Below, in pieces: positions 17,769 to 46,462 of a stretch of DNA of 60,796 nt. Position 1 is the stretch's first letter, and every line of letters starts with the position of its first letter. The DNA is from a virus. Lineage: Duplodnaviria > Caudoviricetes. The translations under genes and the position numbers were made by a program. The DNA lies in the IMG/VR virus record IMGVR_UViG_3300033143_007105, positions 1-60,796 of that record. The stretch is one strand, 5' to 3'. The notes beneath the pieces are model-generated. The model was not told where the DNA came from. It did not search any database and worked only from the letters and a program-made list of their open reading frames with translations.

Positions 17769-17904
17769 TCCTTTAACTTACTTTAATTAATAAATATCCT
17801 ATTTATTATTGTTGACTTTTGTGTTACTTTATTAATAGTATTATTTGTTTGATAAAGAGTTCTAAAGTAATTTCTTTTAAAAACATAATATTTGGAGATA
17901 TATT

Positions 17905-18615
17905 ATGAGTAAAGCAACAGAATTATTAGAAAAGATAAGGGAATTAAAAGAATCAGTTGTTAAAGTTAGAATGATTGATGATAAAATTGCTGTTGAATCA
18001 CCTTATAATTCTGATTTTGTTAAGAAAGCAAGACAGATGCAGGGCAAATGGGATTCCAAAAATAAAGTATGGGTTTTTGATAATGAAGATAGGAGTTTAG
18101 TTTTAGATATACTTCGTTCAGTTTATGGTTATGAGGAAAGTGGTGAGTTAGTTACAGTGGAAGTAGGGGGTGATGCTCTTAAATCTGGTGATAAATACGA
18201 TCATATTGTTTTATTTGGACAGGATTTAGCAAAACGGTGGGATAGGGATAGTGAGGTTAAATTGCCAAAAAATGTAAGAGTGATTAAAGGTGATTTTGCT
18301 TCTAGTGGTGGTTCTAGGAAAAGTCCTGCTATTGGAGATATTGTTGGAGTGGTTTTAAAAGTAAAAGATGTGTCAAAGATGAAAGCAGAAGAACTTTTAA
18401 ATGAATATCCAAAAGATGTTAAAATTATTACAAAACTTGCTCCTATTATCAAAAAGAATGACTTAAAAAAAGCAGGTGTTTGGGATGATTTAATTAAGGA
18501 AATAAAATCATTATCGGATAAATATGATATTGCTTTTTCTGGTAAGATTACTATTGGTAAAATTAAACCTAAATATGTAATAGATCAGAATACTGGAAAT
18601 ATTTCATTTGAATAA
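17905..18615 (+). CDS. putative internal head/cargo protein (class-A leader)
   Basis: MSKATELLEKIRELKE; cargo SPYNSDFVKKARQMQGKWD...WVF...VYG. Confidence 0.7.
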   Translation: MSKATELLEKIRELKESVVKVRMIDDKIAVESPYNSDFVKKARQMQGKWDSKNKVWVFDNEDRSLVLDILRSVYGYEESGELVTVEVGGDALKSGDKYDHIVLFGQDLAKRWDRDSEVKLPKNVRVIKGDFASSGGSRKSPAIGDIVGVVLKVKDVSKMKAEELLNEYPKDVKIITKLAPIIKKNDLKKAGVWDDLIKEIKSLSDKYDIAFSGKITIGKIKPKYVIDQNTGNISFE

Positions 18616-18650
18616 TATATCTAAAACAACTATTAACATTTAAGGAAAAT

Positions 18651-20393
18651 ATGGGATTTTTAGATTCTTTACAATTTTGGAAAAGTAAAAATATTACATT
18701 GAATCAAGCACAAGCTACCTTACTTGAGAAAATGTTTCCAGGTTTTAAAAACATTAAATCTGAAGAGGATCTTAATAAATTATCTGAAAGGGTTATTGCA
18801 GGGGTGAACGATACTGATGCAATGGATGATTTCAGAGAAGCTATTAAGGAAAATCTCCAATCCGGTAATCTTAAAAATTATCATGTTGCTGCTGCTTTGT
18901 CTGCTGTTTATACAAAAGTTTCTCGGTATTGGAAGGATATAATAAGAGAAATTGATAAAGTTAGGAACAACTATTTAGTTGATCTTATTATTAATCAGAT
19001 TACAGAGGATGCTCTTGCTCCGGATGTATCAACCGGGGAAATATTAAATGTTTTTTCTAAGAATACAAAAATCAATAAAGAATTAAAATATTTAGATGAG
19101 AAATTTAAGTTTGATGATTTTGTTGCTGATTTTACTCCGGACCTTTGTGCTTATGGTGAACAAACATTTTCAACTAAAATAAGGACAAAGAATAATAAAG
19201 AGAAACAAGAATCCATTACTGAAAAAATGAGGAAGAAGTTTGAAAAGGATTCTAATATAAATGAGGAAAAATCTGAATTAGATAATAATGAGGAGGAAGG
19301 CAGTTTAGGTTTAGTTGAACTGAATGATGATGTTCCTCATGGAACTGTTATTGGAATTTCAAAAGGTATTGAAATTGATGGATATTTAGTTATTAATGAT
19401 AAAGATAAAATAGAGAAAAGATCAAATTGGGATTATGTTAAATTCAGGCTTGGTAAATCTAAAATAAGAATTGATCTACATCAAGAGTTTGCTCATGCAA
19501 ATAAGAATTTAAAACAGGCAATGAAAGATATTCCTAGATTTGTTAGAATTGGGAAAGGTTTTATATATCCTATTATTGCAAAACTCAAAGAATTAGAACT
19601 TTTAGAAGTTCTTGTTCCAGCAACAAAAATCAATAAACTTTCATCAGGTACTTTAATTGGAATGAACGTACCTTCAGGAACAAAAATTGAAGATGCTATG
19701 AAAGCATCAAGGAAATTAGAAGGGATAATAAATAAGAAAGTTGGTATTGATACACAGAAAGAGGAGATATCACTTGTCAATATAATGTCCTCAGCAGGAA
19801 GGGTAAAAATAGTTCCTCAGTTTGGTGAAAAAGGCAGTCTTTCAAAATTAGATCATCATTCTGAGGAACCTGATGATTTGTTAAGTTCTATCAGGGATAT
19901 TAGAGAAGTAGTATCAACAACAATTGGTATTCCTTTTGAAATCTTATTTCTTTCTGATACCGATAAAAAAGTTGAGATCTTAAAACGCTATGCAAGATAT
20001 ATAAGGAAATTGAAAAGTGTCCAGAAAGCAATTTCTGATGGTATCAGACAAATTATCTATGTTCATCTTGTCAATGTTGGTATTTCATTTACTCCAAAAG
20101 ATATTGAAATTGAATTTAGGAATAAATTAGTTGAAGTGGATCAATTAGATAAATTGGAATTTGCCGACACTGTTGTTAGTATGTTGGGTAATATAAAGAG
20201 CTTCTTTTATGAATTAGCAGAAGAGGATTCTCCACTTGCAGGATATGTTAATTTTGAAGGGTTAGTAAAAGTGTTAAACGAGTATTTGAAAAGTATTGGA
20301 TTATCAGGAGCAATAAGAGATAAACCACTAAAAGAACCTGAAACTGTACCGGATGAAGAGGATGATGAAGAAGAAACTCAAAGAAAAGTTTAA
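18651..20393 (+). CDS. portal protein (T4 gp20-like position and size)
   Basis: 580 aa, downstream of TerL and upstream of the protease; IINQITEDAL, DLCAYGE, IGIPFEIL, RYARYIRKLKSVQKAISDG pattern. Confidence 0.7.
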   Translation: MGFLDSLQFWKSKNITLNQAQATLLEKMFPGFKNIKSEEDLNKLSERVIAGVNDTDAMDDFREAIKENLQSGNLKNYHVAAALSAVYTKVSRYWKDIIREIDKVRNNYLVDLIINQITEDALAPDVSTGEILNVFSKNTKINKELKYLDEKFKFDDFVADFTPDLCAYGEQTFSTKIRTKNNKEKQESITEKMRKKFEKDSNINEEKSELDNNEEEGSLGLVELNDDVPHGTVIGISKGIEIDGYLVINDKDKIEKRSNWDYVKFRLGKSKIRIDLHQEFAHANKNLKQAMKDIPRFVRIGKGFIYPIIAKLKELELLEVLVPATKINKLSSGTLIGMNVPSGTKIEDAMKASRKLEGIINKKVGIDTQKEEISLVNIMSSAGRVKIVPQFGEKGSLSKLDHHSEEPDDLLSSIRDIREVVSTTIGIPFEILFLSDTDKKVEILKRYARYIRKLKSVQKAISDGIRQIIYVHLVNVGISFTPKDIEIEFRNKLVEVDQLDKLEFADTVVSMLGNIKSFFYELAEEDSPLAGYVNFEGLVKVLNEYLKSIGLSGAIRDKPLKEPETVPDEEDDEEETQRKV

Positions 20394-20610
20394 TAAAACA
20401 ATGAATGATATAGTTGATAAAGTAAAAGAGAATAATATAAAACTTGATAATTGTTCTAGGCATAATTTTGTTTGTGTTAGTTCAGATCAAAATACATTTA
20501 AAAGATATCAATGTTTAAATTGTGGAGGATTTGTTTCCAATTCCGATAAGACTTGGTACGAAAAAGGTTTAGAACATGGATTAAAAACAGGGGAGAATGG
20601 AGATGATTAA
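20353..20610 (+). CDS. small zinc-binding hypothetical protein
   Basis: CSRHNF...CLNCGG...WYEKGLEHG. Confidence 0.55.
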   Translation: MKRMMKKKLKEKFNKTMNDIVDKVKENNIKLDNCSRHNFVCVSSDQNTFKRYQCLNCGGFVSNSDKTWYEKGLEHGLKTGENGDD

Positions 20611-20857
20611 TACAAAAGAGATGATTGATTTTTTGGATGAAAAATCTAGTACAGACAAATGGGTTGATAAACATCTTAAGGAAATAAAGCCAAATGAAAA
20701 TGAAATTGATGATGTTACGTATGTATTGGATCTTATAAAGAAAGGTTCAGTAAGAATTTCTTTTAGTAAAAATATTGAGAAATATCGGGATATTCTTTTA
20801 AAAATTGGAAAAAAGGAAATTCCTAATTTAGTTTTTGTTGGACAAGAGACAAAATAG
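20597..20857 (+). CDS. putative internal head/cargo protein (class-B leader)
   Basis: MINTKEMIDFLDE (start probably 20603). Confidence 0.65.
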   Translation: MEMINTKEMIDFLDEKSSTDKWVDKHLKEIKPNENEIDDVTYVLDLIKKGSVRISFSKNIEKYRDILLKIGKKEIPNLVFVGQETK

Positions 20858-20906
20858 TAGATTTTTATTTTAATTAAAAAGAGGTGGATTTTCAGGGAAA
20901 GTAAGG

Positions 20907-21320
20907 ATGATTAATAAATTAAAAATTATTACTTCAAGAGAAATGCTTTTATTTTTAGAAGCTAAAGATAAATATATTTTAGTAATGGAAGATGAAGATG
21001 GTATTTTAGATCTATTGAAAATTTATCTTAGTAAATACAAAGCATTAAAGGTTGAAGTTTTTTCTCAATTTAAGGAGGGTTTGTTTTTTCTTGCAGAGTA
21101 TTTTAAGAAGGTTGAATTAGTCATTGTGGATGGCATTGGTCCAGGTGATCCTAGAATTAGTCAAAAAATTTATTTATTGTGTAAAGATAAAGAAATTCCT
21201 GTTATTTATTCTACGGGTTCAAGCAGACCAAAATTTGTTGATGAAGAGGATTATTTAGGAAAACCTTTTAAGAGCAAAGATTTAATTTCATTAATAAAGA
21301 CAAAGAATATAGAGGTATAA
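20907..21320 (+). CDS. response-regulator receiver (CheY-like) domain with class-B leader
   Basis: ITSREMLLFLE leader; ILVMEDE, LVIVD phosphoacceptor, IPVIYSTG, YLGKPF. Confidence 0.8.
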   Translation: MINKLKIITSREMLLFLEAKDKYILVMEDEDGILDLLKIYLSKYKALKVEVFSQFKEGLFFLAEYFKKVELVIVDGIGPGDPRISQKIYLLCKDKEIPVIYSTGSSRPKFVDEEDYLGKPFKSKDLISLIKTKNIEV

Positions 21321-21511: not shown

Positions 21512-21955
21512 ATGATTACTTCAAAAGAAATGCTTTTATTTTTAGAAGGAAAGATAAAGAGTTTGCTTAACAAAGAACTTGATATAAATATAATAGGTTT
21601 CACTAAACTTAAAAAATGGAAGCTTGAAAAGAATGTTCATAATATTTATTGGCTTCAATCTCAAGATAAAAAAGATGTAAGGTTTCCGGTAATAGATGGA
21701 GAGGTTTTTGGTTTAAAAGAAAAAAGGAATACAGCTACTTTTATTATTCTCACTATTCCAGAAAATTTGAAAAACATTACTGCTAATATGAGAGGTCCAA
21801 TTATTATGGATCTTGATTCTATGTCTGCTGACCAGAGTGAAACAATAAATAAGAAAGCTGAATCTAGTTTCAAAGCTTATGATATTCTTATAAAACATTA
21901 TGAGAAACAAGGTAAAGAAGGGGAAGAAATTTTAAGGATTTTAAATAAGAAATAA
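21512..21955 (+). CDS. fliW: FliW-like protein with class-B leader
   Basis: MITSKEMLLFLE leader; IIGF, YWLQSQD...RFPVID, FIILTIPE...TANMRGPIIMD....ADQ match FliW motifs. Confidence 0.72.
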   Translation: MITSKEMLLFLEGKIKSLLNKELDINIIGFTKLKKWKLEKNVHNIYWLQSQDKKDVRFPVIDGEVFGLKEKRNTATFIILTIPENLKNITANMRGPIIMDLDSMSADQSETINKKAESSFKAYDILIKHYEKQGKEGEEILRILNKK

Positions 21956-21968
21956 GGAGATAGGTACA

Positions 21969-22346
21969 ATGTCTAAGGCAACAGAATTGTTGGAAAAGAT
22001 AAGGGAATTGAAGGAAGAAAACACTGATAATGATAAAGCTGAATTTCAGAAATATTTAGATGATTTTGAAAAAGAGTTGTCTAAAAAAGGTTTTGATAAA
22101 AATATTAAAATGGAACCAAGATACAGTTTACCAGTTGGTAATTTCAGTATTGATATTAGTAGTATCAAGTATCCGGAAACATCTGTTACAGTTTATAAAA
22201 AGGGTTGGAGTGTTAGTATTTCTCTTACACAAGGAAAAATGAGAGGTGGCCTTGTTATGGATAGGGGGGAATTTAGATCTAGGAAATTAAAAAATGTTCC
22301 CAAAATGTTGAAGCATGTATTAGATTTTGTGAAAGAAAAAATTTAA
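21969..22346 (+). CDS. putative internal head/cargo protein (class-A leader)
   Basis: MSKATELLEKIRELKEE. Confidence 0.65.
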   Translation: MSKATELLEKIRELKEENTDNDKAEFQKYLDDFEKELSKKGFDKNIKMEPRYSLPVGNFSIDISSIKYPETSVTVYKKGWSVSISLTQGKMRGGLVMDRGEFRSRKLKNVPKMLKHVLDFVKEKI

Positions 22347-22366
22347 GAAATGAGGAGAATAACAAT

Positions 22367-22990
22367 ATGTCTAAAGCAAGAGAAATCTTAGAAAAAATAA
22401 AAGATTTTAAAGCTTTAATAGAAAGTAAATCTATTAATGACATAACAACCTTGGATGATTTAAAAAATATTGATTATAATAATTTAACAATCTTAAATAA
22501 GATTGTTAAATGTCAAGAAGTTGAAAGTATGATTTCTCCTAGAACTGTTGAAAAATTTTATAATATAAAAAACATACTACTGGACAAAGGTGAGGTTGTT
22601 CAAAAACACAAGGGATTATATTCATATTATTTAGTTATTAAATATAAAGGAGATCTTTTTCATAAACCAGTGAGTGAGAGTGAGTATAATTTATATAGCG
22701 TACCATCAGGTTCATTAAAAACTGGATTGAAATTTTTTCTTAGCAGTGTTAGTGGTAACACAAAAGATAAAATTGAAATAATTAAAGGGAAATTGAAAAA
22801 ATTTATTAGTTCTCATGATTCTAAGATTAAATCCATAAAAATAATACCAAGGAAGAATAAAGCTAAAAAAATGGTAAAAGAATTAGGTGATGTAGCTAAA
22901 TTAATAAAAGATGATGGTTTGGATTATGTTTTAGAATTTCCAGGAAAAATTTTTAAGAGAATAGATAAAAAACAAATAAAGATATTATAG
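22367..22990 (+). CDS. putative internal head/cargo protein (class-A leader)
   Basis: MSKAREILEKIKDFKALIE. Confidence 0.65.
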   Translation: MSKAREILEKIKDFKALIESKSINDITTLDDLKNIDYNNLTILNKIVKCQEVESMISPRTVEKFYNIKNILLDKGEVVQKHKGLYSYYLVIKYKGDLFHKPVSESEYNLYSVPSGSLKTGLKFFLSSVSGNTKDKIEIIKGKLKKFISSHDSKIKSIKIIPRKNKAKKMVKELGDVAKLIKDDGLDYVLEFPGKIFKRIDKKQIKIL

Positions 22991-23002
22991 GAGAATAACA
23001 AT

Positions 23003-23749
23003 ATGTCTAAGGCAAAAGAAATTTCAAAAAAGATACATGAATTTTGGGACGGAGATACTTCCATCATTCCAATAAAACCAAACAATGTTAAAAAAGCTTT
23101 TCAAAAAAGATTAGCATATTTTGAAATGGATGGAGTATCAGTTGATGAAGTTGATATTGATCTGGAAGGGAATATTAGGGTAACTTTCTCTGATTATGAA
23201 GATGATGTTATGGAAGTTCTTTTTGGTTATGATGAGGATAATGATGAAGGTTCCTACGCAATGATTCTTGGTGAAGATGATGATGAAGATTATTTCATTA
23301 TGGATCTTGATCCTATGAATCCAGTAATTCTTCAAACTGAACAATTTGGAAAGTATGTAAACCTTACTGATCTATCTTGGGTTAATAAAAGTATGTTTGC
23401 TTCTATGTTCTCAATTGGTGAGATTGATTTTTTCACAGAGAGTAAAGTAAGGGAAGGTTATGAAGGAAATTTATCTGATGATTTTAAGGGGTATGAGAAG
23501 ATCAAGGATGAAGCATTTAAGACAGTTGTGAGGGGAGGTAAAAAGATTAAACTTCCAGTTGTAAGAAGAAAAAGGAAAAAAGTATTAACATCAAAACAGA
23601 GAGCAGGGATTGTAAGGGCAAAGAGAAAAAGAAAAATGACTATGAAAAAAAGTTCAACAAAATTAAAAAGAGCCAAATCGTTAAAGATCAGGAAGAGGTT
23701 AGGGTTGAAGAAAAAGAGTCTTCCTAAAGGGTACAAAGTGAGAAGATGA
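23003..23749 (+). CDS. prohead core protein (T4 gp68-like) with class-A leader
   Basis: Acidic N-terminal half, very basic C-terminus LTSKQRAGIVRAKRK...KRAKSLKIRKRLGL resembling gp68; leader MSKAKEISKKIHE. Confidence 0.6.
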   Translation: MSKAKEISKKIHEFWDGDTSIIPIKPNNVKKAFQKRLAYFEMDGVSVDEVDIDLEGNIRVTFSDYEDDVMEVLFGYDEDNDEGSYAMILGEDDDEDYFIMDLDPMNPVILQTEQFGKYVNLTDLSWVNKSMFASMFSIGEIDFFTESKVREGYEGNLSDDFKGYEKIKDEAFKTVVRGGKKIKLPVVRRKRKKVLTSKQRAGIVRAKRKRKMTMKKSSTKLKRAKSLKIRKRLGLKKKSLPKGYKVRR

Positions 23750-24987
23750 TTACTTCAGAAGAAATGTTGGATTTCTTAGATGAAAAACAAATAGAGGAGG
23801 GACAAGTAATTTCATATAAGACTATCCTTAAATGGAAGCAAGATTTGAATACTATTATTAAAGGTATTCGGCAAACAAGATATAAGAACATCAAGGATGC
23901 TATATCAGATTATTCAAAAATAGAGAAAATGATTAATGTCTATTTTAAGAATCTTAAGGAATTCTTGGAACGTGATTTAGGTTTCATATTTGATGCAAAG
24001 GACTATCACACACTCCGGGGAATTCCAAAGATTGAGAGGATAATTGATAATTATAGAAAATTGAGAACTGCTTTTTCACAAGGTCTATCTGATCCTGAGC
24101 ATTGGATTAGTTCTTATAACTTAGATGCAGAAATAAATAAAAAACGGCTTGATAATGAGGAGGAGATTGATTGTGGAGAATATGGAATGGTTAAGGCTAT
24201 TGATTACTATGTGAATGGGAGGTATAGAGATTTTGGAAAAACACTTTCCAAACAACAACAATTTAATCCAGAAACAAGAAGGTGGGGTAAAGATAAAAGT
24301 ATTGAAGAAATAGCAGAACAGCTTTGGACAGTAATTAGGGATTGGATAAAAAAACATTCTAAAGATGGGGACAAAAAAGAATTTGATAATCCTATTACTG
24401 CTCCACTAAAGTATACATTGGGGAAATTGATATTTGTAAATTCCATGAAGCTCGGTATTGGTAGTCTCAAAAACATAATGAAAGGTATTAAACCTGCTAT
24501 TGCTAAACTAAAAAGAGTTCTTCCAGAGGTTCTTTATGGTGATGTTTATATAACTGAGAAACCGGAAAGAGAGATAACCATTAAAGTTACTGGAAGAAAA
24601 TCAGGAGTAGCAGGGATATATAATATAGCAAAGGATAATGTTAGTCTTTATTTTAAAAAGCTTTCAATGAGTGAAATTGCCTATGTTGAAAATGTATTAA
24701 TACATGAGCTTGCTCACAGGTATTATTACAAGTTTATGGACTCATCCAAAAGACAACAATGGGAGCATTTCTTTCAGGACCTAAGAAAAGAAGGAGTATC
24801 TGATTATAGTTCTCAGAACCCTGCTGAGGATTTTGCTGAAACCATGATGGATTATATTATGAAGAAAGGCCAATTGAAACAAAAGGATGCTAGAGATAGA
24901 CTTAAGGTAATATTAAAGGGAAAGAAATATTTTGAAAGTAAAGCAAAAGAAATACTATATAAAATACAGGAATTAAGGGAGATTTAA
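23746..24987 (+). CDS. zincin metallopeptidase-domain cargo protein (class-B leader)
   Basis: MITSEEMLDFLDE; AGIY, VLIHELAH, VSDYSSQNPAEDFAE. Confidence 0.75.
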   Translation: MITSEEMLDFLDEKQIEEGQVISYKTILKWKQDLNTIIKGIRQTRYKNIKDAISDYSKIEKMINVYFKNLKEFLERDLGFIFDAKDYHTLRGIPKIERIIDNYRKLRTAFSQGLSDPEHWISSYNLDAEINKKRLDNEEEIDCGEYGMVKAIDYYVNGRYRDFGKTLSKQQQFNPETRRWGKDKSIEEIAEQLWTVIRDWIKKHSKDGDKKEFDNPITAPLKYTLGKLIFVNSMKLGIGSLKNIMKGIKPAIAKLKRVLPEVLYGDVYITEKPEREITIKVTGRKSGVAGIYNIAKDNVSLYFKKLSMSEIAYVENVLIHELAHRYYYKFMDSSKRQQWEHFFQDLRKEGVSDYSSQNPAEDFAETMMDYIMKKGQLKQKDARDRLKVILKGKKYFESKAKEILYKIQELREI

Positions 24988-24988
24988 T

Positions 24989-26539
24989 ATGATTACTTCA
25001 AAGGAGATGTTAGATTTTCTTGAACAACAAATGTCTATAGATACTGCTTTAGATTTTCTTGATCTAACAGCAGATGATTTAGGAGATGTTGATAAAATTA
25101 AAAAAGCATACAAAAAAGCAGCAGTAAAAAATCATCCGGATCATGGTGGATCTGATGATGCTATGAAGAATGTTAATCTTGCCTATGAACTTTTAAAAGC
25201 TTCTAAGGTTTCATTTGTTAAACATGAATATGATTTTGATAAGATGAATAAGGAGTATCAAGAACTTGGAAAAAAGGTTAAAGATGAACTTGTCAATGCT
25301 TTTAGACCAGAAATATTTACAAGTTATTTTCAAGATATTTTTAAGAAGGAATTCAAAGGAGAAATCACATCTACTTTTCCCAAGGAAAGTCAAAGAAATC
25401 CTACTAATGCTGGTTTTAGTGCTGAAATATTCACTTTGGACAAGAGAATAGTTTTTAGTATATATGTGTCAGTTTATCTTGTTGATGTTAAATATGGCCA
25501 GTCTCTTGGTGGAGGTTCTGGGGGAATAGATTATACAGTGGATGTTACAGCTCATGGTTTATATGACAGAAGAAAGCAAAAGATCTCTAGGAGAGATTAT
25601 AAAAGAATATCAAACCAAGTGGTATTACTTGATCCAAAGGTTATTTTTCCAAAAGCAAAGATTACAAAAATAGTTAAAGAACCAAAAAGAAAATCTTTCA
25701 AAAGAAGGGATATGTATTTATCTCTTCAAAAAGAACTCAAAGCAAAGACTGTTGATGAATGGGTTTATATCCCTTTAAATGATAAAGGATGGGAGCTTGT
25801 TATCTTTAGAATGACTTTTCGCAGAGTTGCAGGTTGGATGATTAATGGACTATATCTGAGGACAGGTAAATTGGGTAGCAGTTCAAGAAAATATCAGCTT
25901 AAGACAAAATCTTTCCCAGAAAAGGAAGAACTTATTGAATTTATAAAAGAACTTCAAAAGAAATCAAAAAATCTTGAAGATAAAAAACTTGCTGGTATGT
26001 TAGATAAGGAAATCCAAGCAAAGGAAATAAAACATGATGAGGGGTTTAATATGAGTAGAGCAAGAGAAGTGTTAGAAAAAATAAGGGAATTAAAAGAATC
26101 CTCTTATCCAACATACAAAAAAGGAGATTGGAAAAAGAATCCTCCAGATACAATTTATTTTGATAAGGAATTTGGTGTGTGTATGGCTTATAAAGATTTT
26201 CTTTATCAACCAGGAACAGGTGGTACTATGAATTATCAAACTCCTGGAGGAAAATTCAAGTATGTTAAAGTTAAATCAGATGATGATTTTAAAAAAATGA
26301 TTGATAAGGGAGAAATCAAAGAATCTCTAACAGAAGCAAACTTTAAAACAGCAAATATGGTTGAACTTGCAAAAGATATTGAAGTTAAAGGTAGGAAGTT
26401 TTTAAAAGGAACTGTACTTGATATTCTCAAAGTTGATACTTCTCCAAAGGAAGTGATAATATCAGTGGAATCCCCCGGAGGAATAAAATTTGATTTGAAA
26501 TGTAAATCTGAAAAGGATTTTGAACATAAGTTGTTTTAA
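24989..26539 (+). CDS. J-domain (DnaJ-like) cargo protein, fused in frame to a second leader-tagged unit starting at 26051
   Basis: MITSKEMLDFLE; IKKAYKKAAVKNHPDHGGS...VNLAYELLK (HPD motif); internal GAGGGG + ATG MSRAREVLEKIRELKES. Confidence 0.8.
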   Translation: MITSKEMLDFLEQQMSIDTALDFLDLTADDLGDVDKIKKAYKKAAVKNHPDHGGSDDAMKNVNLAYELLKASKVSFVKHEYDFDKMNKEYQELGKKVKDELVNAFRPEIFTSYFQDIFKKEFKGEITSTFPKESQRNPTNAGFSAEIFTLDKRIVFSIYVSVYLVDVKYGQSLGGGSGGIDYTVDVTAHGLYDRRKQKISRRDYKRISNQVVLLDPKVIFPKAKITKIVKEPKRKSFKRRDMYLSLQKELKAKTVDEWVYIPLNDKGWELVIFRMTFRRVAGWMINGLYLRTGKLGSSSRKYQLKTKSFPEKEELIEFIKELQKKSKNLEDKKLAGMLDKEIQAKEIKHDEGFNMSRAREVLEKIRELKESSYPTYKKGDWKKNPPDTIYFDKEFGVCMAYKDFLYQPGTGGTMNYQTPGGKFKYVKVKSDDDFKKMIDKGEIKESLTEANFKTANMVELAKDIEVKGRKFLKGTVLDILKVDTSPKEVIISVESPGGIKFDLKCKSEKDFEHKLF

Positions 26540-26650: not shown

Positions 26651-26887
26651 GTGACATTAAAGAAGAAAAAAGTAAATGAAGAGGAAGAAAAGGAAAGCTT
26701 ACAAAAAAGAATTGTAAGACAGATTATCCGGATCTCTTCTCAGTATTTAATAGCAAAAGAAGAGAAAAGGAAAGTTGATCTTAATACTTCATTAGTCCTT
26801 CTTCAATCAGCTTTACAAATAACTGATGATAGACAAGCTGATAGAGTTTTAAAAACAGCGTTAAAGATAGAGAGGAAAAGAAAATGA
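26651..26887 (+). CDS. hypothetical protein
   Basis: GTG start with GAGG; stop overlaps next ATG. Confidence 0.5.
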   Translation: MTLKKKKVNEEEEKESLQKRIVRQIIRISSQYLIAKEEKRKVDLNTSLVLLQSALQITDDRQADRVLKTALKIERKRK

Positions 26888-27063
26888 TTAAAGCACAAGA
26901 AATGTTAAAATTTTTGGGTGAGAAAGGGCAATATAGTCCGGATATAGAGGGACTTGATTCTTTAGTGGATGATTTGGGTATGGATTTAGCCACATTAGAA
27001 TTTAAATTGTCTAAAGAATTTTCAGGGGATAAAAGGAAAAAGATTTTTATGCAAAATTTTTAA
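26884..27063 (+). CDS. small class-B-leader ORF (59 aa, not in ORF track; possibly frameshifted, continuing to about 27140)
   Basis: MIKAQEMLKFLGE... Confidence 0.55.
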   Translation: MIKAQEMLKFLGEKGQYSPDIEGLDSLVDDLGMDLATLEFKLSKEFSGDKRKKIFMQNF

Positions 27064-27142: not shown

Positions 27143-27844
27143 ATGATATTTCAAACTGACCAGGATGCAAAACTTTTTTGTATTGAGATTGGTAAACCTG
27201 AACTTATAGAAAAAGCAAATAAAGATTGGAAACCAGAATCTAGTCATATCAAGCTTTTTGTTAAGAAGAGAAAAGATCTTGTTGGTAAATTAAAGAATTT
27301 TAGGAAATCTCAAAACACAAAAGCAGAGTGGAGAAAATACAGATATAAACTTATGAAGGGGATTAGACGTTTTCATAAATCCACTAAAGGGAAACGGTTT
27401 CATAGAAATCTTGGAAAGTTTTTAATTAGGCATATTGTTGATAAAGGAGAAGCATCAAAAAAAAGTAAAGATAATAGATATGAATCCTTGTATAGTGGAA
27501 GTGCTATATATGAAGTTTTAAAATCTCTTTCTAGTATTAAAACTCATTTTTATATTGAACAACAATATTATATGCCTATTAGTGAAGAAGTTGAATTTTC
27601 TTTTCTTTTTGAGGAGGTGAGAGAGTCTATAGAGGAGGTTGAGAGATCTATTTTAGTGAAAAATAATAATTTTAAAGAAAAAAATATTTTTTGGTTATCA
27701 GAAGTAGTTGAAAAAGACAACCTCCTTAAAACTATAAGTGAATTGTTAGGAAAAGAACTTGAAGAAGTTGAAAAAAGGTATAATATTTTAGAAAAAAATG
27801 ATTTAAGTGTTATTGAAATTTTAAGAAAACTGTTAAAGAAATGA
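27143..27844 (+). CDS. hypothetical basic head-region protein
   Basis: RKSQNTKAEWRKYRYKLMKGIRRFHKSTKGKRFHRNLG. Confidence 0.6.
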   Translation: MIFQTDQDAKLFCIEIGKPELIEKANKDWKPESSHIKLFVKKRKDLVGKLKNFRKSQNTKAEWRKYRYKLMKGIRRFHKSTKGKRFHRNLGKFLIRHIVDKGEASKKSKDNRYESLYSGSAIYEVLKSLSSIKTHFYIEQQYYMPISEEVEFSFLFEEVRESIEEVERSILVKNNNFKEKNIFWLSEVVEKDNLLKTISELLGKELEEVEKRYNILEKNDLSVIEILRKLLKK

Positions 27845-28242
27845 ATAAAAATAATATTTGTAAGATTTGTGGTTATATTGGTGCTGAGGTTGGAGGTGAT
27901 ATTTCTTATCATGTTAAAAAAATCCATAAACTAAAACCACATGATTATTTTGATAAGTTTATTCTTGAAAATAAAATTCCAACTTGTATGAAACAAGGTT
28001 GTGAAATTAATTTACCTTATAGGAAAAGATATACTCCTGATTTTTATTTACCAGATTTTGATTTTTGGATAGAAGTAAAACCTTTTTGTTTTCAGGATAA
28101 TATGATGGATTTTATAATGAGTATGCAAAGATGCCATCATAAACAACTTATATATCTGGACAAAAAACAATTTGAATATTTTTTGTGGAGTTTATTAGAT
28201 GCTCAAAGCGAAGGAAATGTTGGAGTTTTTAGGAATAAATGA
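27841..28242 (+). CDS. Zn-finger + PD-(D/E)XK endonuclease, short (probably degenerate) copy
   Basis: CKICG...HVKKIH...YFDKF; YTPDFYLPDFDFWIEVK. Confidence 0.65.
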   Translation: MNKNNICKICGYIGAEVGGDISYHVKKIHKLKPHDYFDKFILENKIPTCMKQGCEINLPYRKRYTPDFYLPDFDFWIEVKPFCFQDNMMDFIMSMQRCHHKQLIYLDKKQFEYFLWSLLDAQSEGNVGVFRNK

Positions 28243-28432
28243 AACATCAGCATTGGTAAATGATTTTGCTGATAAGACAGGGAAGAGTGTTGAAGAAATT
28301 GAAAATATGTGGAAAGCAATAAAAGCAAGTTTAATAAAACAGGGCAATGATGAAGAAAGTCCTAATTTTTATAGATTACTTGTTGGGATAATGAAAAAGA
28401 ATCTAGGTTTAATAAAAAATAAGGGGAAATAA
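28199..28432 (+). CDS. putative internal head/cargo protein (class-B leader)
   Basis: MLKAKEMLEFLGINE; ADKTGKSVEEIENMW. Confidence 0.65.
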   Translation: MLKAKEMLEFLGINETSALVNDFADKTGKSVEEIENMWKAIKASLIKQGNDEESPNFYRLLVGIMKKNLGLIKNKGK

Positions 28433-28436: not shown

Positions 28437-28697
28437 ATGAAAACAAAAGCACAAGAAATGTTGGATTTTTTGGATGAGAAAGAGTTTCCTAAATTTGGAG
28501 ATGATGTTAAAAAAGCTTTAAAATCTTTAGTGGGGGAAACTGAAGATGATTTGGGTGTGCTTGTGAATCTTGAGGCAAGGATGGATGATGAAGATTTTGA
28601 TTCAACAAAAGAAAAAGATATTAGAAAATATTTATTAAAGTATAAAATAGATAAAAATATAATTGATAAATATATCAAAGCTTGGAAAAAGATATAA
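28437..28697 (+). CDS. putative internal head/cargo protein (class-B leader)
   Basis: MKTKAQEMLDFLDE. Confidence 0.65.
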   Translation: MKTKAQEMLDFLDEKEFPKFGDDVKKALKSLVGETEDDLGVLVNLEARMDDEDFDSTKEKDIRKYLLKYKIDKNIIDKYIKAWKKI

Positions 28698-28804: not shown

Positions 28805-29176
28805 ATGAAAACTAAAGCACAGGAAATGTTGGATTTTTTGAATGAAGATAAACATGAACAAAAATTGGGTGATTCTTTAGTATTTTTTGATATTAAGGAT
28901 TTAACTTTTTTATCTAAGGATATTTTGGAAATAGAAGAAGGTTTTGCAGATACTTGGGATTCTAAATGGACACCACCTGAAGGTTTGTCAGATAAAAAAG
29001 CAGGGACAATAGCAAAAATAATAGCTGCTACTGGTAAAACATTAAAAAATGCTACTGATAAATTAAATTTTTTTATTAACAGGGCAGGTAATAAGATGGA
29101 TCCGGACAAATTGATAAAAATGAAACGTGTTCTTGATATTTTGAGTGATATGAAAAAATTTAAAAAGAAAAAATAA
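28805..29176 (+). CDS. DUF3175-like cargo protein (class-B leader)
   Basis: MKTKAQEMLDFLNE; KWTPPEGL...IAKII...LNFFINRAGNKM. Confidence 0.6.
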   Translation: MKTKAQEMLDFLNEDKHEQKLGDSLVFFDIKDLTFLSKDILEIEEGFADTWDSKWTPPEGLSDKKAGTIAKIIAATGKTLKNATDKLNFFINRAGNKMDPDKLIKMKRVLDILSDMKKFKKKK

Positions 29177-29203: not shown

Positions 29204-30580
29204 TTGGAAAATAAACCTATACCAGTACAGGATATTTTTGAACCAGATGTAAGTTTTGTTATTGAAGAAGCATCCGGTGAAGTTGATGGTATTCATATAC
29301 TTGCTAAAATCTCAGGAACCTTTTTTGTACCTGATGGAATTTCCAGAAATAAAAGGCATTATTCAGAATCTCTTTGGAAAAAACAATTAGCAAGAAAAGA
29401 AATAAAAGAACTTCTTGAGTCCAGAAGAATGTTTGGAACTATTTCCCATGAACAAGAACTTAATGATAAGGCTTTGCTTGAGGGTAAAGTTTCTCATATT
29501 ATAACTAAACTATCCATTAATGAAAAAGATGGAAAAAAACAGGGATATGGTGAAGCACTTATTCTAAATACTCCTGCTGGACAACTTTTAAATACTTATT
29601 ACCGGGCTGGATCAAAACTGTTTACATCTTCTCGCGCAGGTGGAACTTTTAAAGGCACACACTCAGGAATACCTTCTGTAGATGAAGATACTTATAGATT
29701 AAAAACATTTGATTTTATTGGTGATCCTGGTTTTTTAGAAGCTAATCCAGATCTTGTTGAAAGTTATAATGAAATTTTTAAACCTAAATTAAATGAAAAT
29801 TCCAATGAGGAGGAAAACGATATGGATAAGGAAATGACTGATCTACTTAGTAAATCAATGAATGAAAATTCTACTTTACAGGCTGATCTAAAAAATACTT
29901 TGAATGAAGTTGAAACTCTTAAGGGTAATAATACTGTACTTACAGAAGAGAATACTCACATCAAAGGTGAGATTGAAAATCTTAAAAAAATAAATGAAAA
30001 CATCAAGGTTTATGAGGAGCTTGGAAAAGCTGATGAATTAAAAGAAAAACTTGCAAAAAATGAAGAACTTTTAAAAAAGTTTGAAAATCTTGGTACTCCT
30101 GAAGCTATTGGTAAAGTTTTTGAAGAATGCAAAACAAAGGTTACAAGTTTGGAAGAGGAGCTTAACAATTTCAAAAAGATTGGAACATTTGAAGAAATTC
30201 AAAATGTTTTTGAAAAATCTAAAGAAGAGATTGGAAAGTATCGTCCCCTTGGTACACCGGAAGAAATTGAAGAAACTAATAATGAAATTGTTACTGTTAT
30301 TGATGATATGAAAAAAAGCAAGAATTCTGTTAGAATCAAAGCACTTGCAGAGGAATTAAAGATTCCAGAAGAAAAAATCGAAAAAATCTATGAGACAATG
30401 AAAGATGAAGAAGAGATCAAAGAATTTTTCAAAGATCTTTCTGAATCTTCTAAGATAAAAAAGAAATTCCAAAAAACTAATGAAGATGTAAATGGTGACA
30501 ACAAAGATGGAAATACAGAAGATGAAAATCCATTTGCAAACAAGACATCTGCTGAAAGTTTGATGGAACAATTTAACTAA
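29204..30580 (+). CDS. prohead protease (T4 gp21-like) fused to coiled-coil scaffold
   Basis: GTFFVPDGISRNKRHY, MFGTISH, VSHIIT, GEALILNTPAG, TSSRAGG, TFDFIGDPGF; E/K-rich C-terminal half. Confidence 0.88.
   Translation: MENKPIPVQDIFEPDVSFVIEEASGEVDGIHILAKISGTFFVPDGISRNKRHYSESLWKKQLARKEIKELLESRRMFGTISHEQELNDKALLEGKVSHIITKLSINEKDGKKQGYGEALILNTPAGQLLNTYYRAGSKLFTSSRAGGTFKGTHSGIPSVDEDTYRLKTFDFIGDPGFLEANPDLVESYNEIFKPKLNENSNEEENDMDKEMTDLLSKSMNENSTLQADLKNTLNEVETLKGNNTVLTEENTHIKGEIENLKKINENIKVYEELGKADELKEKLAKNEELLKKFENLGTPEAIGKVFEECKTKVTSLEEELNNFKKIGTFEEIQNVFEKSKEEIGKYRPLGTPEEIEETNNEIVTVIDDMKKSKNSVRIKALAEELKIPEEKIEKIYETMKDEEEIKEFFKDLSESSKIKKKFQKTNEDVNGDNKDGNTEDENPFANKTSAESLMEQFN
29822..30580 (+). 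CDS. nested scaffold protein (internal in-frame start)
   Basis: GAGGAGG 8 nt upstream of in-frame ATG 29822; repeated (Y/F)xxLGTPExI units. Confidence 0.6.
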   Translation: MDKEMTDLLSKSMNENSTLQADLKNTLNEVETLKGNNTVLTEENTHIKGEIENLKKINENIKVYEELGKADELKEKLAKNEELLKKFENLGTPEAIGKVFEECKTKVTSLEEELNNFKKIGTFEEIQNVFEKSKEEIGKYRPLGTPEEIEETNNEIVTVIDDMKKSKNSVRIKALAEELKIPEEKIEKIYETMKDEEEIKEFFKDLSESSKIKKKFQKTNEDVNGDNKDGNTEDENPFANKTSAESLMEQFN

Positions 30581-34476: not shown

Positions 34477-34512
34477 ATGTCTAAAGCAAAAGAGGTATTA
34501 ACAGGAATATAA
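34477..34512 (+). pseudogene. leader-only remnant (MSKAKEVLTGI*)
   Basis: ATGTCTAAAGCAAAAGAGGTATTAACAGGAATATAA after AAGGGA. Confidence 0.5.
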
Positions 34513-34895: not shown

Positions 34896-35090
34896 ATGAA
34901 AACAGCAAAAGAGATGTTGGATTTTTTGGATGAAGGTGAAGATAAGGAAGCTCTTTTCAAAAAGAAATTCAAGGAACTTGAGTATTGGGATTCAAGAAAT
35001 ACAACAACAAGTGTTCAATGTGATAATTTGAAAAGAGCCAAAGCTATTATTAAAAATTCAGGTATTGAACAGACAATAAAGGAAGTATGA
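34896..35090 (+). CDS. putative internal head/cargo protein (class-B leader)
   Basis: MKTAKEMLDFLDE. Confidence 0.6.
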   Translation: MKTAKEMLDFLDEGEDKEALFKKKFKELEYWDSRNTTTSVQCDNLKRAKAIIKNSGIEQTIKEV

Positions 35091-35094: not shown

Positions 35095-35526
35095 ATGAAA
35101 ACTAAAGCACAAGAAATGTTAAAATTTTTAGAAATGAGAGGACAAGGTACAGGACCAGAAGGTATGGCTGGTACATCCTTGTGTATTTGTCCTTCATGTA
35201 AGCATGAAGTTTCTCACAATAGAGGAGTTCCTTGTAATGAAATGAAATGTCCTAAATGTCAAACTCCAATGACAGGTAAAGGAACTGTTGGATCAAAAGT
35301 TGGAGATGAGAGTAAAGCACAAGAAATATTAGATAAGTTGAATAGGGTTGAAGAAAAAGTTAAAATAGGTTCTGTTGCTGCAACAATTAATGGTATTGTC
35401 AGTAAAATAGAAAAAGAAAAAATACCAGAACAAGAAAAAATTGGAAATAAAGATACTGTAAAAGCTTTAAAGGATGCAGTTAAATTTTTGGATAAAGCTA
35501 CTGATATATTATTTGATATATCTTAA
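35095..35526 (+). CDS. class-B-leader cargo with Cys-rich metal-binding module and a second internal leader
   Basis: MKTKAQEMLKFLE; GQGTGPEG..CICPSC...HNRGVPC...CPKC; internal SKAQEILDKLNRVEE. Confidence 0.65.
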   Translation: MKTKAQEMLKFLEMRGQGTGPEGMAGTSLCICPSCKHEVSHNRGVPCNEMKCPKCQTPMTGKGTVGSKVGDESKAQEILDKLNRVEEKVKIGSVAATINGIVSKIEKEKIPEQEKIGNKDTVKALKDAVKFLDKATDILFDIS

Positions 35527-35933: not shown

Positions 35934-36320
35934 ATGATTAATACAAAAGAAATGTTGGATTTTTTGAATGAGGGTAAACATCCAATGCTTGATGATTATT
36001 TAGTTTCTGCATTATGGTCTTCCAGTGATGATGAGGGTAATCCTTTAGATGATGATTATGATGTTTCTGATGTAAGTAAAGAAGCAATTAAGAAATCTGA
36101 AAAAGATTTAAAAGATTTTGAGAAAAAGGCTGGAAAGTTATTAGATGGATTAGATCCAAAACAAATAGCACATGATTTTTGGTTGACTAGAAATGGTCAT
36201 GGTGCAGGTTTTTTGGATAGGGATTATGATGGTAAGGAAAAGAAGTTGGATAAAATTGCGAGTTCTTTTGGTAGTGTGATGGCTTATGTTGGGGATGATA
36301 AAAAGATTTATATGGATTAA
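35934..36320 (+). CDS. conserved phage protein with class-B leader
   Basis: MINTKEMLDFLNE; YLVSALWSS...AHDFWLTRNGHGAGF.DR. Confidence 0.7.
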   Translation: MINTKEMLDFLNEGKHPMLDDYLVSALWSSSDDEGNPLDDDYDVSDVSKEAIKKSEKDLKDFEKKAGKLLDGLDPKQIAHDFWLTRNGHGAGFLDRDYDGKEKKLDKIASSFGSVMAYVGDDKKIYMD

Positions 36321-44833: not shown

Positions 44834-45966
44834 TGATTGGATTAGAAAATCAATATTTATTTAAGTTTAGTATTGCAGACAAACATGATTTTATTCAAGA
44901 AGGTGATTTAACTCTTTTTAAGATTGTTGAAGAAGCTGGAAATACATTACCAAAATTTGAACTCATCTTCTCCACTCAAGATGAAAAGGTTTTTGGTTGT
45001 CTAAATGAAGGAAATGTTCTTAAAATATCTTATGGTAAAGATAAAAATGATTTAATAGATAGTTCATTAATAATTGCAAGTAGTAATGGAGCTAGAAGTG
45101 GTCAAAAGAAAAGGCAAATAAGGTTAGTTGGGTTGTTAGCAAAAACAGGTTATATTTCTGATACCAAAAAGAAGATTACAGATAAGATCTCAGGAATAGA
45201 AGCTCTGAAAGAAACTGTTGAACCTTATTTTAAAACTGATTTCAATATAGAAAAATCTAATGATTCTCAGTATTGGATACAACCAAACACTACAGATAAA
45301 ATGTTTGTAAATGATTGTTGGTTACATAGCAATCTAAATAAATCTTTTCCTGTTTGTGGAATTACAATGGATGGTATATTTATTCTAAAGGATCTCAAAA
45401 AGGATTTAAAGAATAAATTTAAATGGAGATTCATTTCTACTCCGTCAGCTTCCAATGACATTAGATATGATGAAGATTTCGGTATTGATATAAATTCAGG
45501 TTTTCTAAACAATCTTATTGGTTATGGGAGGGAAAAATTAATTTATAATTTTGAGGAAGGTACAGAAGAATATAAAGTAGAAGAAATGACTTCTATTCTT
45601 GCTCTTACAAAGAAATTGGGGAGAAGAAAAGATGCAATAAATAGATTTTCCTCAATTGGTATACATAATGAGAATAAGCATGAAAATTATGAAAATACTT
45701 ATCTTAAAAACCTAACACATCTTGCCATGTTTGGTAGTTTAAAAATTTCAGTATCATTCCAGAATAATTTTGTTCCAATAAAAATATTGGATTCTGTAAT
45801 GTTTAAAGATGATGATGTTAATGAGAACAATAATGCTTCTTCTGAATATCATTCAGGATTATATTATGTTGGATTGGTGGCAAGAATACTACAACATAAA
45901 CAATTTGTAACTACAGTCCATTTAGGTAGAGAATCTTTGAATCAATTAAAAGGAGATTTAAAATAA
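44833..45966 (+). CDS. baseplate hub protein (gp27-like)
   Basis: Position and size; WIQPNTTD, SGLYYV. Confidence 0.6.
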   Translation: MIGLENQYLFKFSIADKHDFIQEGDLTLFKIVEEAGNTLPKFELIFSTQDEKVFGCLNEGNVLKISYGKDKNDLIDSSLIIASSNGARSGQKKRQIRLVGLLAKTGYISDTKKKITDKISGIEALKETVEPYFKTDFNIEKSNDSQYWIQPNTTDKMFVNDCWLHSNLNKSFPVCGITMDGIFILKDLKKDLKNKFKWRFISTPSASNDIRYDEDFGIDINSGFLNNLIGYGREKLIYNFEEGTEEYKVEEMTSILALTKKLGRRKDAINRFSSIGIHNENKHENYENTYLKNLTHLAMFGSLKISVSFQNNFVPIKILDSVMFKDDDVNENNNASSEYHSGLYYVGLVARILQHKQFVTTVHLGRESLNQLKGDLK

Positions 45967-45967
45967 T

Positions 45968-46462
45968 ATGATTACTTCAAATGAGATGTTAATTTTTTTG
46001 AATGAAGGTAAAAATATAGCTAAAATTATTATCCATAAATTTTTATTTAATACACAATTACCGGAGGCTAATTTTTTAAGGAAAGTAGTTCATGAAGAGA
46101 TATTGAAAGGAAAAATAGATCAATCTTTTATAAAGAAGAATAGGATTGCTAAAATATCTTTTGTTGATGAAAATTTAGATAAATATATAGAAGATACTTA
46201 TAATATTAATATTAATGATTTAAAAAAAGATATAATAAAAATTTATGAAAAAAACCAAAAAAAATTAAAAAAAGAATTTCCTGAAAAAATAAAACTGTAC
46301 AGAGGATCTCAAAGTAAAATTGATGATACAATATCTTTTTGGACAACAAAAGAATCTGTTGCTAAAACTTTTGGTGGTATAGTAAGTATGATACTTACTT
46401 GTTATAAAATTAATAAAGAGATGGTAAAAGAACATGAAGAATATTTGGTTATATCTAAATAA
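45968..46462 (+). CDS. ADP-ribosyltransferase-like cargo protein (class-B leader)
   Basis: MITSNEMLIFLNE; KLYRG, SFWTT..SVA..F, EHEEYLV (R-S-E type motifs). Confidence 0.6.
   Translation: MITSNEMLIFLNEGKNIAKIIIHKFLFNTQLPEANFLRKVVHEEILKGKIDQSFIKKNRIAKISFVDENLDKYIEDTYNININDLKKDIIKIYEKNQKKLKKEFPEKIKLYRGSQSKIDDTISFWTTKESVAKTFGGIVSMILTCYKINKEMVKEHEEYLVISK

Follow-up and report, generated by a model that had tools for sequence, protein, structure and literature searches.

A candidate capsid-targeting leader shared by 20 unrelated genes around the T4-type head module of an uncultivated Caudoviricetes phage

Introduction

The internal proteins of T-even phages enter the head by means of short N-terminal capsid-targeting sequences (CTSs), and the present study concerns a leader of similar appearance shared by 20 otherwise unrelated open reading frames (ORFs) of a virus of the class Caudoviricetes (IMG/VR record IMGVR_UViG_3300033143_007105). 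The window analyzed was the entire contig of 60,796 bp, with about 28% G+C. In the propeptides quoted here, a slash marks the cut, putative in the window proteins; for the T4 proteins, we take it to be the site of the prohead protease gp21. The T4 propeptides read MKTYQEFIAE/A in ipII and ipIII, MKTFKEF...ITE/A in IPI, MAKINELLRE/S in gp24, MELITELFDE/D in Alt and MLKEQLIAE/A in gp22 (NC_000866). According to PMC9026906, the propeptides of T4 internal proteins comprise 10–19 residues, of which residues 4 and 7 act in targeting and residues 8 and 10 in processing. At least 10 internal proteins have been reported across the T-even phages, and the injected proteins of T4 are described as anti-restriction factors (PMC12373910). 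The capsid-targeting precedent to which an earlier, sequence-only reading of the window had appealed is thus established for T-even phages (PMC3012670, PMC9026906, PMC12373910). The T4 record also annotates the ADP-ribosyltransferase (ART) Alt as located in the capsid and entering with the DNA.

Several other systems bring diverse proteins into a phage head or a related shell. MuF-family head proteins with C-terminal toxin domains offer phages another way to carry effectors in the capsid, by fusion to a structural head protein and without a cleavable leader. Encapsulins and phage P1, with its Dar system, likewise fill an HK97-fold shell with diverse cargo. Loading depends in encapsulins on short C-terminal peptides that stay on the cargo and in P1 on adaptor proteins, and neither system is known to involve a gp21-type protease. 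In the SPN3US/phiKZ system, the gp21-related prohead protease, that of SPN3US in particular, cuts after Glu (A-X-E) and removes the N-terminal propeptides of head-packaged proteins (PMC10052503); these propeptides are mostly 111–254 residues long and, unlike the leader considered here, are not described as a shared short tag.

The locus described below resembles the T4 CTS system (IPI, IPII and IPIII) in that a short N-terminal propeptide-like leader, mostly ending in (L/I)-x-E and with hydrophobic positions 4, 7 and 8, precedes unrelated proteins, in that a gp21-family protease and a head of the gp20/gp23 type are encoded, and in that the tagged gene set is variable and accessory-looking. It differs in the length of the leader (13–19 residues versus 10 in IPII and IPIII), in the number of tagged genes (20 in the window fragment versus three Ips in T4), in the coexistence of two leader dialects, and in the position of the genes, which lie within the head and tail modules, whereas those of T4 occupy separate ip loci. 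The lineage is also distant (capsid protein 42% identical to those of Rhizobium phages of the Kleczkowskaviridae), and its cargo has recognizable regulatory and chaperone domains. One tagged protein, ORF 45968 (ORFs are named by their start positions), recalls T4 Alt in its leader and ART-like features; Alt has 682 amino acids (aa) and ORF 45968 only 164 aa, and its ART assignment is only a lead. To judge from the literature searches, the expansion of the tag to 20 genes and its spread through a clade are new, the principle being already known from T-even phages.

Results

Leaders in the window

Twenty ORFs of the + strand in the 17905–46462 region were found to begin with an N-terminal leader of 13–19 residues. 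Six belonged to class A, with the pattern MSKAxE[ILV]... and lengths of 72–248 aa (ORFs 17905, 21969, 22367, 23003, 33197 and 34257), and 14 to class B, with the core [EG]M[LI]xFL (ORFs 20603, 20907, 21512, 23746, 24989, 26884, 28199, 28437, 28805, 34548, 34896, 35095, 35934 and 45968). The class B core occurred 14 times in the six-frame translation, in all 14 cases on the + strand and 5–22 residues past a stop, versus 0.05–0.22 expected from shuffles of codon blocks or of the proteome; SKAxE[ILV] was observed nine times, versus 0.07–0.10 in the same kinds of shuffles. The leader observation is genuine and statistically overwhelming. The sequence-only reading had counted about 21 such genes: every ORF start it listed was present with the leader ascribed to it, the total being made up of 20 ORFs and one 11-codon remnant, and a hidden Markov model (HMM) scan of all six frames, of the kind it had proposed, added no member. 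A variant leader that it had placed at ORF 7069 proved weak (whole-sequence E-value 0.0039 against 93 proteins, best stretch 0.35).

Downstream of the leader, the proteins were unrelated, as had been claimed: an all-against-all BLASTP comparison of the 20 leader proteins from residue 21 onward (about 3,270 aa in total for the full proteins) gave no match better than E = 0.01, and several of the better-scoring matches were accounted for by extra class A copies. There are three such copies, within 24989, within 35095 and at the C-terminus of 23746. They had been missed earlier and show that the motif is not strictly N-terminal. The leader ends described earlier were also present. The motif [LI]xE starting at residues 7–18 was found in 16 of the 20 leader proteins and in 16 of the 73 other called genes (Fisher p = 3 × 10−6, leaders not being independent of one another), and FLE was found in ORFs 20907, 21512, 24989 and 35095. 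Judged by motif presence, class A leaders have two candidate cleavage sites, after E9 and after E13–E19 (E16 in ORF 17905, for example). The leaders MKTKAQEMLDFLDE/K of class B and MSKATELLEKIRELKE/S of class A resemble the T4 propeptides at positions 4, 7 and 8 and, like them, close with Glu.

The leaders are conserved as peptides and not as DNA, a pattern for which a recombination scar, promoter or RNA element does not account. The DNA 5′ of the leader start codons was conserved only at the ribosome-binding site, and both AGT and TCT served as codons for the leader serine. The leaders of ORFs 17905 and 21969 were identical at 16 of 16 residues and differed in six codons, with six synonymous and zero non-synonymous differences; for the class B core, 300 codon pairs were identical, 154 synonymous and 92 non-synonymous. 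Complete domains begin after the leader, namely, at residue 24 for the receiver domain of ORF 20907 and at residues 26–27 for the FliW match of ORF 21512, and the J-domain match of ORF 24989 begins at residue 33, corresponding to model position 13. By these matches, the leader is an add-on ahead of complete domains.

The relation between the two classes was assessed with a profile built solely from 78 distinct M[SNTG][KR]A leaders encoded near relatives of the capsid gene and searched against the 93 proteins of the window. In these 78 leaders, positions 1–4 were fixed by the selection criterion; at unfixed positions, residue 7 was L/I/F/V/M in 73, residue 8 was L/I/V in 72 and residue 11 was L/V/I/F in 55. 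The profile recovered five of the six class A leaders (whole-sequence E-values of 2 × 10−6 to 1.4 × 10−4), and the sixth, that of ORF 23003, scored 0.017. The five shared the top rank with ORFs 35095 (7 × 10−6) and 24989 (8 × 10−5), which owe these scores to their internal class A copies. Class B aligned to the profile with a shift of +2 residues (MKTKAQEML type): seven of the 14 ORFs were at E ≤ 0.05, with a full range for class B of 1 × 10−3 to 0.5. ORFs 28805, 28437, 26884, 34548 and 28199 matched on the leader alone (1 × 10−3 to 0.05), ORFs 34896 and 35934 scored 0.28 and 0.49, and the leaders of the five other class B ORFs were not matched by this profile. Among the 73 non-leader proteins, only ORF 7069 (0.0039) was below 0.3. 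By this comparison, class B is class A in shifted form, and the two are dialects of one leader; both patterns reported earlier are present, but their separation into distinct classes did not hold.

Leaders in related loci

The nearest named relatives of the capsid protein were those of Rhizobium phages of the Kleczkowskaviridae (42% identity), with Yersinia phage YerA41 among the more distant ones (27%), and many metagenomic relatives with 41–56% identity were found on contigs of up to about 200 kb. Leaders of the type M[SN][KR]A-x-x-[LIF]-[LI], with local variants, occur on many genes around the capsid gene in the metagenomic relatives. Together, the window and the capsid-relative loci encode 1,911 distinct ORF products, in which the commonest N-terminal four-residue words were MSKA (35), MNKA (17) and MSRA (14), and MNRA began eight products. 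In single loci of about 15–22 kb, the profile marked 11 of 31, 10 of 27, 9 of 31 and 8 of 37 genes, counts that are partly circular because the profile was derived from those loci. In a motif-free search, which required at least 7 of 12 identical N-terminal residues and an unrelated remainder, clusters of at least three genes were found in 22 of 97 sources of at least 9 kb, a few of these sources being one contig present in two collections. The same peptide motif was present in relatives with 31–47% G+C, compared with 28% in the window phage.

The lineages had consensus leaders of their own, for example, MNKAQKLLxxIE, MxLIxELNQLLE, MTLAREVLDLLNE and xLLxLLEN, with MS[RK]ISxLNKKFEA in YerA41. 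Orthologues of ORF 35095 occur in five other loci, each with the leader of its own genome. In this family (n = 6), the leader matched those of unrelated genes of the same genome at 10, 8, 6, 8, 5 and 6 of 12 positions, versus 4, 5, 4, 6, 6 and 5 positions for the leader of the best orthologue, the within-genome match being higher in five of six cases. By these comparisons, the leader type depends on the genome that encodes it rather than on the protein it precedes. Leaders that evolve in concert within each genome would be expected if all those of one phage had a recognition partner in common.

In one related locus, the orthologue of ORF 23003 (L026:4886-5554) has its own leader segment tandemly duplicated (KAKSLLEQLSKLIPYS twice). 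A degenerate DNA pattern of the class B leader gave two matches in viral contigs, both in contigs of 50% G+C; the match in L002 lies inside a reading frame, reads KEMFDFLDE and is unrelated to the leader. With the protease as a single query against viral contigs, no related locus was confirmed. Among the literature matches listed, including the retrieved portions of PMC7354516, PMC9023294 and PMC4621102, no account was found of the leader or of an expanded tagged set outside the T-even phages.

Cultured relative YerA41

In the 145,577-bp genome of YerA41, the leader MS[RK]IS.[LM]N.KFE[AS] is confined to a cluster of six small genes immediately 5′ of the head genes. Five of these six carry the GenBank label "structural protein", versus 35 of the 207 other coding sequences (Fisher p = 0.001), a contrast in which gene position is a confounder. 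Liquid chromatography–tandem mass spectrometry identified 63 particle-associated proteins of this phage, and their N-termini are not discussed in the retrieved text of the report (PMC7354516). Furthermore, according to PMC9023294, the 131-nm head of YerA41 (MW570730) could hold a genome much longer than 145.6 kb, and its DNA layers are spaced 33–36 Å, which the authors ascribe to DNA modification. A large load of internal proteins could also contribute to this spacing.

Head module and prohead protease

A gp21-like protease had been proposed at ORF 29204, and the analysis bore this out. Its product scored 27.6 bits with Peptidase_S77 (cut-off 27) and matched phrog_207 (E = 4 × 10−26); the protease is fused to a scaffold-like C-terminal half, an arrangement kept in 31 aligned homologues, and the best PDB match of the profile of these 31 was 5JBL, the T4 gp21 structure (E = 7 × 10−4). 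In T4 gp21, H85 and S140 are presumably the catalytic pair. H82 and S142 of ORF 29204 align with these two residues (NC_000866) and are invariant in the 31 homologues, so that the gp21-type protease is, by alignment, apparently active. The LQE reported at residues 9–11 of the major capsid protein is present as well; in the closest capsid proteins, 6 of the 31 aligned, including that of the window (LQE/S), [LM]xE closes the first 9–12 residues and S or A comes next. A complex prediction for the protease–scaffold protein and the 72-aa class A protein 34257 gave a score of 0.01, which is no answer, and was used neither way.

The motif also occurs in two conserved proteins of the head module, the 23003 and 27143 families. 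ORF 23003 has 21 homologues in related loci, and the alignment of the family displayed a leader-like N-terminus in nearly all of 17 relatives, an acidic middle and a very basic tail. Its claim to a leader is upheld and its status as a variable effector is not: a conserved clade-wide protein of this composition more likely resembles a core or internal DNA-binding protein. In another related locus (L092:2431-5274), a leader-bearing AAA ATPase is fused to a 23003-family domain and interrupted by an intein with Hint and homing-endonuclease domains.

Relatives of ORF 27143 contain an internal [DE][DE]LxFLxRLVE motif that is class B-like. ORF 28199 was 53% identical over 75 aa to residues 173–247 of a protein of a related locus (L026_+7733). 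The idea that insertion of the HNH gene had cut one gene in two, with ORF 28199 as its C-terminal part, was rejected since ORF 27143 already spans the whole family length; ORF 28199 is thus an extra copy. It remains a leader-bearing ORF, as described, but not an independent effector, being an additional C-terminal domain of a conserved head protein beside an HNH gene. This extra copy of the C-terminal domain of the neighboring head gene, located after the HNH gene 27841, looks like a trace of endonuclease-driven gene conversion.

Cargo of the leader proteins

The cargo of ORF 21512 matched FliW in Pfam (59.3 bits, cut-off 25) and in NCBIfam (E = 6 × 10−12), and that of ORF 24989 matched DnaJ (30.3 bits, cut-off 27.8), with HPD at residues 49–51. 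ORF 20907 scored 21.8 bits with Response_reg, under the cut-off of 30.2, and matched NCBIfam response regulators (E = 4 × 10−5), with the signature residues present; ORF 23746 has HELAH at residue 320 and is SprT-like, below cut-off. Between the CheY-like (20907) and FliW-like (21512) leader genes there are about 190 bp, with a 46-aa ORF (21355–21495) as the only intervening reading frame. As predicted neighbors, they suggest phage interference with flagellar or CsrA control, and the host of the window phage is suggested to have a FliW–CsrA system.

ORF 45968 contains LYRG, SFWTT and EHEEY; Y111, R112, G113, W125 and E158 were invariant in four sequences, and YRG, S-x-W-T and E-Y-V motifs were common to it and three distant homologues. 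An Atlas structure search gave a TM score of 0.67 to a DRAT cluster, marked as under the bar. Its search against Pfam gave no match, a word-based homologue search returned only ORF 45968 itself, and the AlphaFold2 model (from a four-row alignment) had a mean pLDDT of 42 and was unusable. An ART-like function is taken as a lead from the Atlas searches. A distant homologue of this domain forms the C-terminus of a MuF-like head protein (P0124; Phage_Mu_F match of 24 bits, below the cut-off of 29.6) that contains an intein with Hint and homing-endonuclease domains, an arrangement akin to that of MuF proteins with C-terminal effectors.

PADLOC gave only weak matches (E = 0.002–0.006) for the 20 cargo proteins. 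Among 75 leader proteins of relatives, those with matches were four AAA ATPases, one EncFtn-/rubrerythrin-like protein and one protein with a sub-threshold methyltransferase match. The EncFtn-/rubrerythrin-like protein, a leader-bearing 96-aa product (L029:1620-1907), scored above the cut-offs of the EncFtn-like, rubrerythrin and COQ7 ferritin-like families; if packaged in a phage head, a protein of this ferritin-like kind would have a counterpart in the cargo of encapsulins.

The remnant 34477, the in-frame internal leader in ORF 24989 and the orphan C-terminal leader of ORF 23746 point to leaders as sites where cassettes are often gained, lost and fused, and the extra copy 28199 beside the HNH gene likewise points to cassette turnover.

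Genome setting

All sizeable ORFs of the window lie on the + strand. Since ORFs are open at both ends and a terminal repeat is absent, the window is a piece of a larger genome. According to profile searches, the 0.1–11 kb region holds replication and nucleotide genes (UvrD-like helicase, NAD-dependent ligase, HD hydrolase and radical SAM protein), followed 3′ by terminase subunits at 11523 and 14275, the T4-type head module, and then the sheath, tube, tape measure and baseplate genes. A megablast search of the 28000–36500 region against the phage collection gave no matches. The genes of the leader region are listed in Table 1.

The large terminase (14275–16383) has 702 aa; the T4-type N- and C-terminal domains begin only at about residue 245, and the first 240 or so residues match other terminase profiles separately. 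A 172-nt direct repeat is present at 16376–16547 and 16841–17012 (91% identity), with a promoter-like TTGACA-17-TAAGAT site in each copy, and the 27-nt motif AAAATnnnAAAATATCCTATTTACTAT occurs four times, at 16409, 16809, 16874 and 17783, the last copy being about 95 nt 5′ of the first leader gene. Directly 3′ of the capsid gene, a strong GC-rich hairpin with a T-run (32114–32136) is the best terminator-like site in the 16.3–36.3 kb region. The T4 late-promoter motif, which we take to be TATAAATA, was not enriched in the scan (15 matches versus 12.65 expected), and a scan of 16300–36299 for sigma-70-like sites gave 111 versus 101.9 expected. Three HNH/homing-endonuclease-like genes (phrog_22215 and phrog_9019) are located within the structural modules, at 27841–28242, 47641–48765 and 56373–56798.

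Table 1. Predicted genes and leader-derived features in the region of the window that bears the leaders (a slash marks the candidate cut).
Feature	Coordinates	Strand	Characteristics
Class A leader gene	17905..18615	+	236 aa, MSKATELLEKIRELKE/S; cargo matches phrog_18108, HARP-like lead
Portal, T4 gp20 type	18651..20393	+	Pfam Portal_T4 25.2 bits, cut-off 22.9
Class B leader gene	20603..20857	+	84 aa, MINTKEMIDFLDE/K
Class B leader gene, longer leader MINKLKIITSREMLLFLEA	20907..21320	+	137 aa, single CheY-like receiver from residue 24
Class B leader gene, FliW-like cargo	21512..21955	+	147 aa
Class A leader gene	21969..22346	+	125 aa; leader identical in protein sequence to that of 17905
Class A leader gene	22367..22990	+	207 aa
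Class A leader gene, conserved clade-wide	23003..23749	+	248 aa; leader, acidic middle, very basic C-terminal tail
Class B leader gene, SprT-like cargo	23746..24987	+	413 aa; C-terminal class A-like copy at nt 24934–24984
Class B leader gene, J-domain	24989..26539	+	516 aa; internal class A copy at residues 355–368 (nt 26051–26092), preceded by Met
Class B leader gene	26884..27063	+	59 aa
Conserved head-module protein, T4 gp68 position	27143..27844	+	Without a leader of either class
HNH-like endonuclease gene	27841..28242	+	phrog_9019, phrog_22215; between 27143 and 28199
Class B leader ORF, extra copy of the 27143-family C-terminal domain	28199..28432	+	77 aa
Class B leader gene	28437..28697	+	86 aa, MKTKAQEMLDFLDE/K
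Class B leader gene	28805..29176	+	123 aa; orthologues in relatives bear leaders typical of their respective genomes
Prohead protease (S77, gp21 family)–scaffold fusion	29204..30580	+	458 aa
Major capsid protein, T4 gp23 family	30662..32098	+	Pfam Gp23 58.4 bits; N-terminus MTNEEKLALQE/S
Class A leader gene	33197..33598	+	133 aa
Class A leader gene	34257..34475	+	72 aa
Class A leader remnant	34477..34512	+	11 codons, MSKAKEVLTGI, then stop
Class B leader gene	34548..34883	+	111 aa
Class B leader gene	34896..35090	+	64 aa
Class B leader gene, zinc-ribbon-like cargo	35095..35526	+	143 aa; internal class A-like copy at nt 35308–35355
Class B leader gene	35934..36320	+	128 aa; cargo matches phrog_1915
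Class B leader gene among baseplate genes	45968..46462	+	164 aa; ART-like lead, not a family assignment

Discussion

The leaders are probably T4-type capsid-targeting propeptides that are cut after Glu, their cargo being loaded into the head for delivery to the host. This reading is supported by the T4-type head module, in which the His and Ser of the protease are kept, by selection at the level of the peptide together with leaders that follow the genome across the clade, and by the structural label of five of the six YerA41 leader genes. The cargo also fits a capsid-delivery model, since ORF 23003 has a basic tail and ORF 45968 is ART-like, as is T4 Alt. The indirect tests that were run on the earlier proposal of a T4-CTS-like tag served by a gp21-like protease all came out in its favor, while binding to the core, cleavage, packaging and injection are steps that we infer.

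In such a mechanism, a tagged protein made late in infection would bear a short N-terminal amphipathic helix in which position 4 is small or hydrophobic, positions 7, 8 and 11 are hydrophobic, and a Glu lies at about positions 12–16. The helix would bind the scaffolding core of the assembling prohead, with the protease–scaffold fusion 29204 and the conserved core proteins 23003 and 27143 as the putative components of this core. The S77 protease of the gp21 family would then cleave after the final Glu of the leader and free the cargo inside the shell, and the cargo would exit with the DNA at the next infection. On entry, the FliW-, CheY-, SprT- and ART-like proteins and the J-domain protein would target host regulation, chaperones and motility, and the basic tail of ORF 23003 would more likely bind packaged DNA.

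It should be noted that a number of observations weigh against this reading. The likeness of the leader to the T4 CTS extends over about 10 residues and is too short for significance; four leaders close with FLE and not with [LI]xE, and the distance to the Glu varies in the leaders of relatives, with E at position 12 in 22 and at position 13 in 23 of the 78. The internal and C-terminal copies mean that the motif is not strictly an N-terminal signal. Three relatives of the capsid gene in genome assemblies lack an M[SN][KR]A-type leader near that gene, and the Rhizobium phage relative has at most one leader of this type. The enrichment in YerA41 is confounded by position, five of six compared with 14 of 30 in the late region alone giving p = 0.18, and the GenBank label of "structural protein" may differ from mass-spectrometric detection. 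In addition, of the 75 leader-bearing proteins in relatives, 69 were without a Pfam match at 1 × 10−4, and most cargo is without an assignable function.

Among the alternatives, the one that survives best, though it is unlikely, accepts that the tag loads proteins into the prohead and is cut there, and holds that most of the cargo consists of assembly or DNA-condensing components that stay in the head or are degraded in it. T4 offers a parallel, in that its structural proteins gp24, gp22 and gp67 also have such propeptides, and in the window the mature parts of 13 of the 20 leader proteins have an isoelectric point of at least 8.7, ORF 23003 is conserved across the clade with a strongly basic tail, and ORF 28199 is a fragment of a conserved head protein. 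Components of this kind are difficult to reconcile with a tagged set that is highly variable among relatives and that includes domains whose targets are plainly cellular (FliW, receiver, J-domain with HPD and ART-like), and the remnant and the gene fusions indicate a rapid turnover typical of accessory genes.

Somewhat less likely again is a leader that serves as a docking helix for a non-capsid partner, such as a phage chaperone or AAA ATPase, the tail lumen or a host hub, or as a pro-sequence that silences toxic proteins until it is cut. The tight clustering of leader genes around the portal, protease and capsid genes, both in the window phage and in its relatives, speaks against such a partner, as do T4-propeptide-like leaders ending in the P1 Glu that gp21-family proteases prefer; what the proposal has in its favor is that an amphipathic helix is a generic interaction element and that the motif also occurs internally, that the leader-bearing AAA ATPases of relatives adjoin or are fused with the 23003 family, and that ORF 45968 lies among the baseplate genes. 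A feature acting at the nucleic-acid level (joints of cassette recombination, a translational-regulator site or a translation-enhancing start) is already largely refuted and highly improbable, for although homing-endonuclease-like genes lie in the region (27841, 47641 and 56373), the remnant and the fused leaders suggest recombination at or near leaders, and MSK and MKT starts generally favor expression, synonymous and non-synonymous differences are equally frequent, leaders of the same peptide sequence differ in their codons, the upstream DNA is not conserved, and the peptide motif is kept across the G+C range of the relatives.

Conclusions

Beyond the reading of the leaders as T4-type capsid-targeting propeptides, we tentatively entertain a broader one, which falls a little short of being probable. 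In it, a large, mostly uncultivated T4-related clade would use a genome-specific capsid address label that evolves in concert across the cargo genes of each lineage and covers up to one-third of the genes around the head module in some members; one dialect may be derived from the internal motif of a conserved core protein. The CheY-like and FliW-like proteins would be aimed at motility control, the J-domain protein at the DnaK chaperone and the ART-like protein at protein modification, all at the time of infection. Because the label would co-evolve across the cargo genes, the whole injected proteome would be readable from sequence.

Proteins injected with phage DNA act ahead of any phage gene expression, and they are hard to find because the tag alone is common to them. 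If the leaders are such tags, a simple leader profile would list the injected arsenal of an uncultivated phage clade and would be a source of candidate counter-defense and host-takeover proteins. It would likewise provide natural and diverse targeting peptides for loading foreign proteins into capsids, a purpose for which the T4 CTS has already been used (PMC9026906). In its retrieved text, the same review of T4 names only the core, and no specific receptor protein, as the partner of the propeptide; the genome-specific co-variation of the leaders would offer a way to locate the leader receptor in the scaffolding core.

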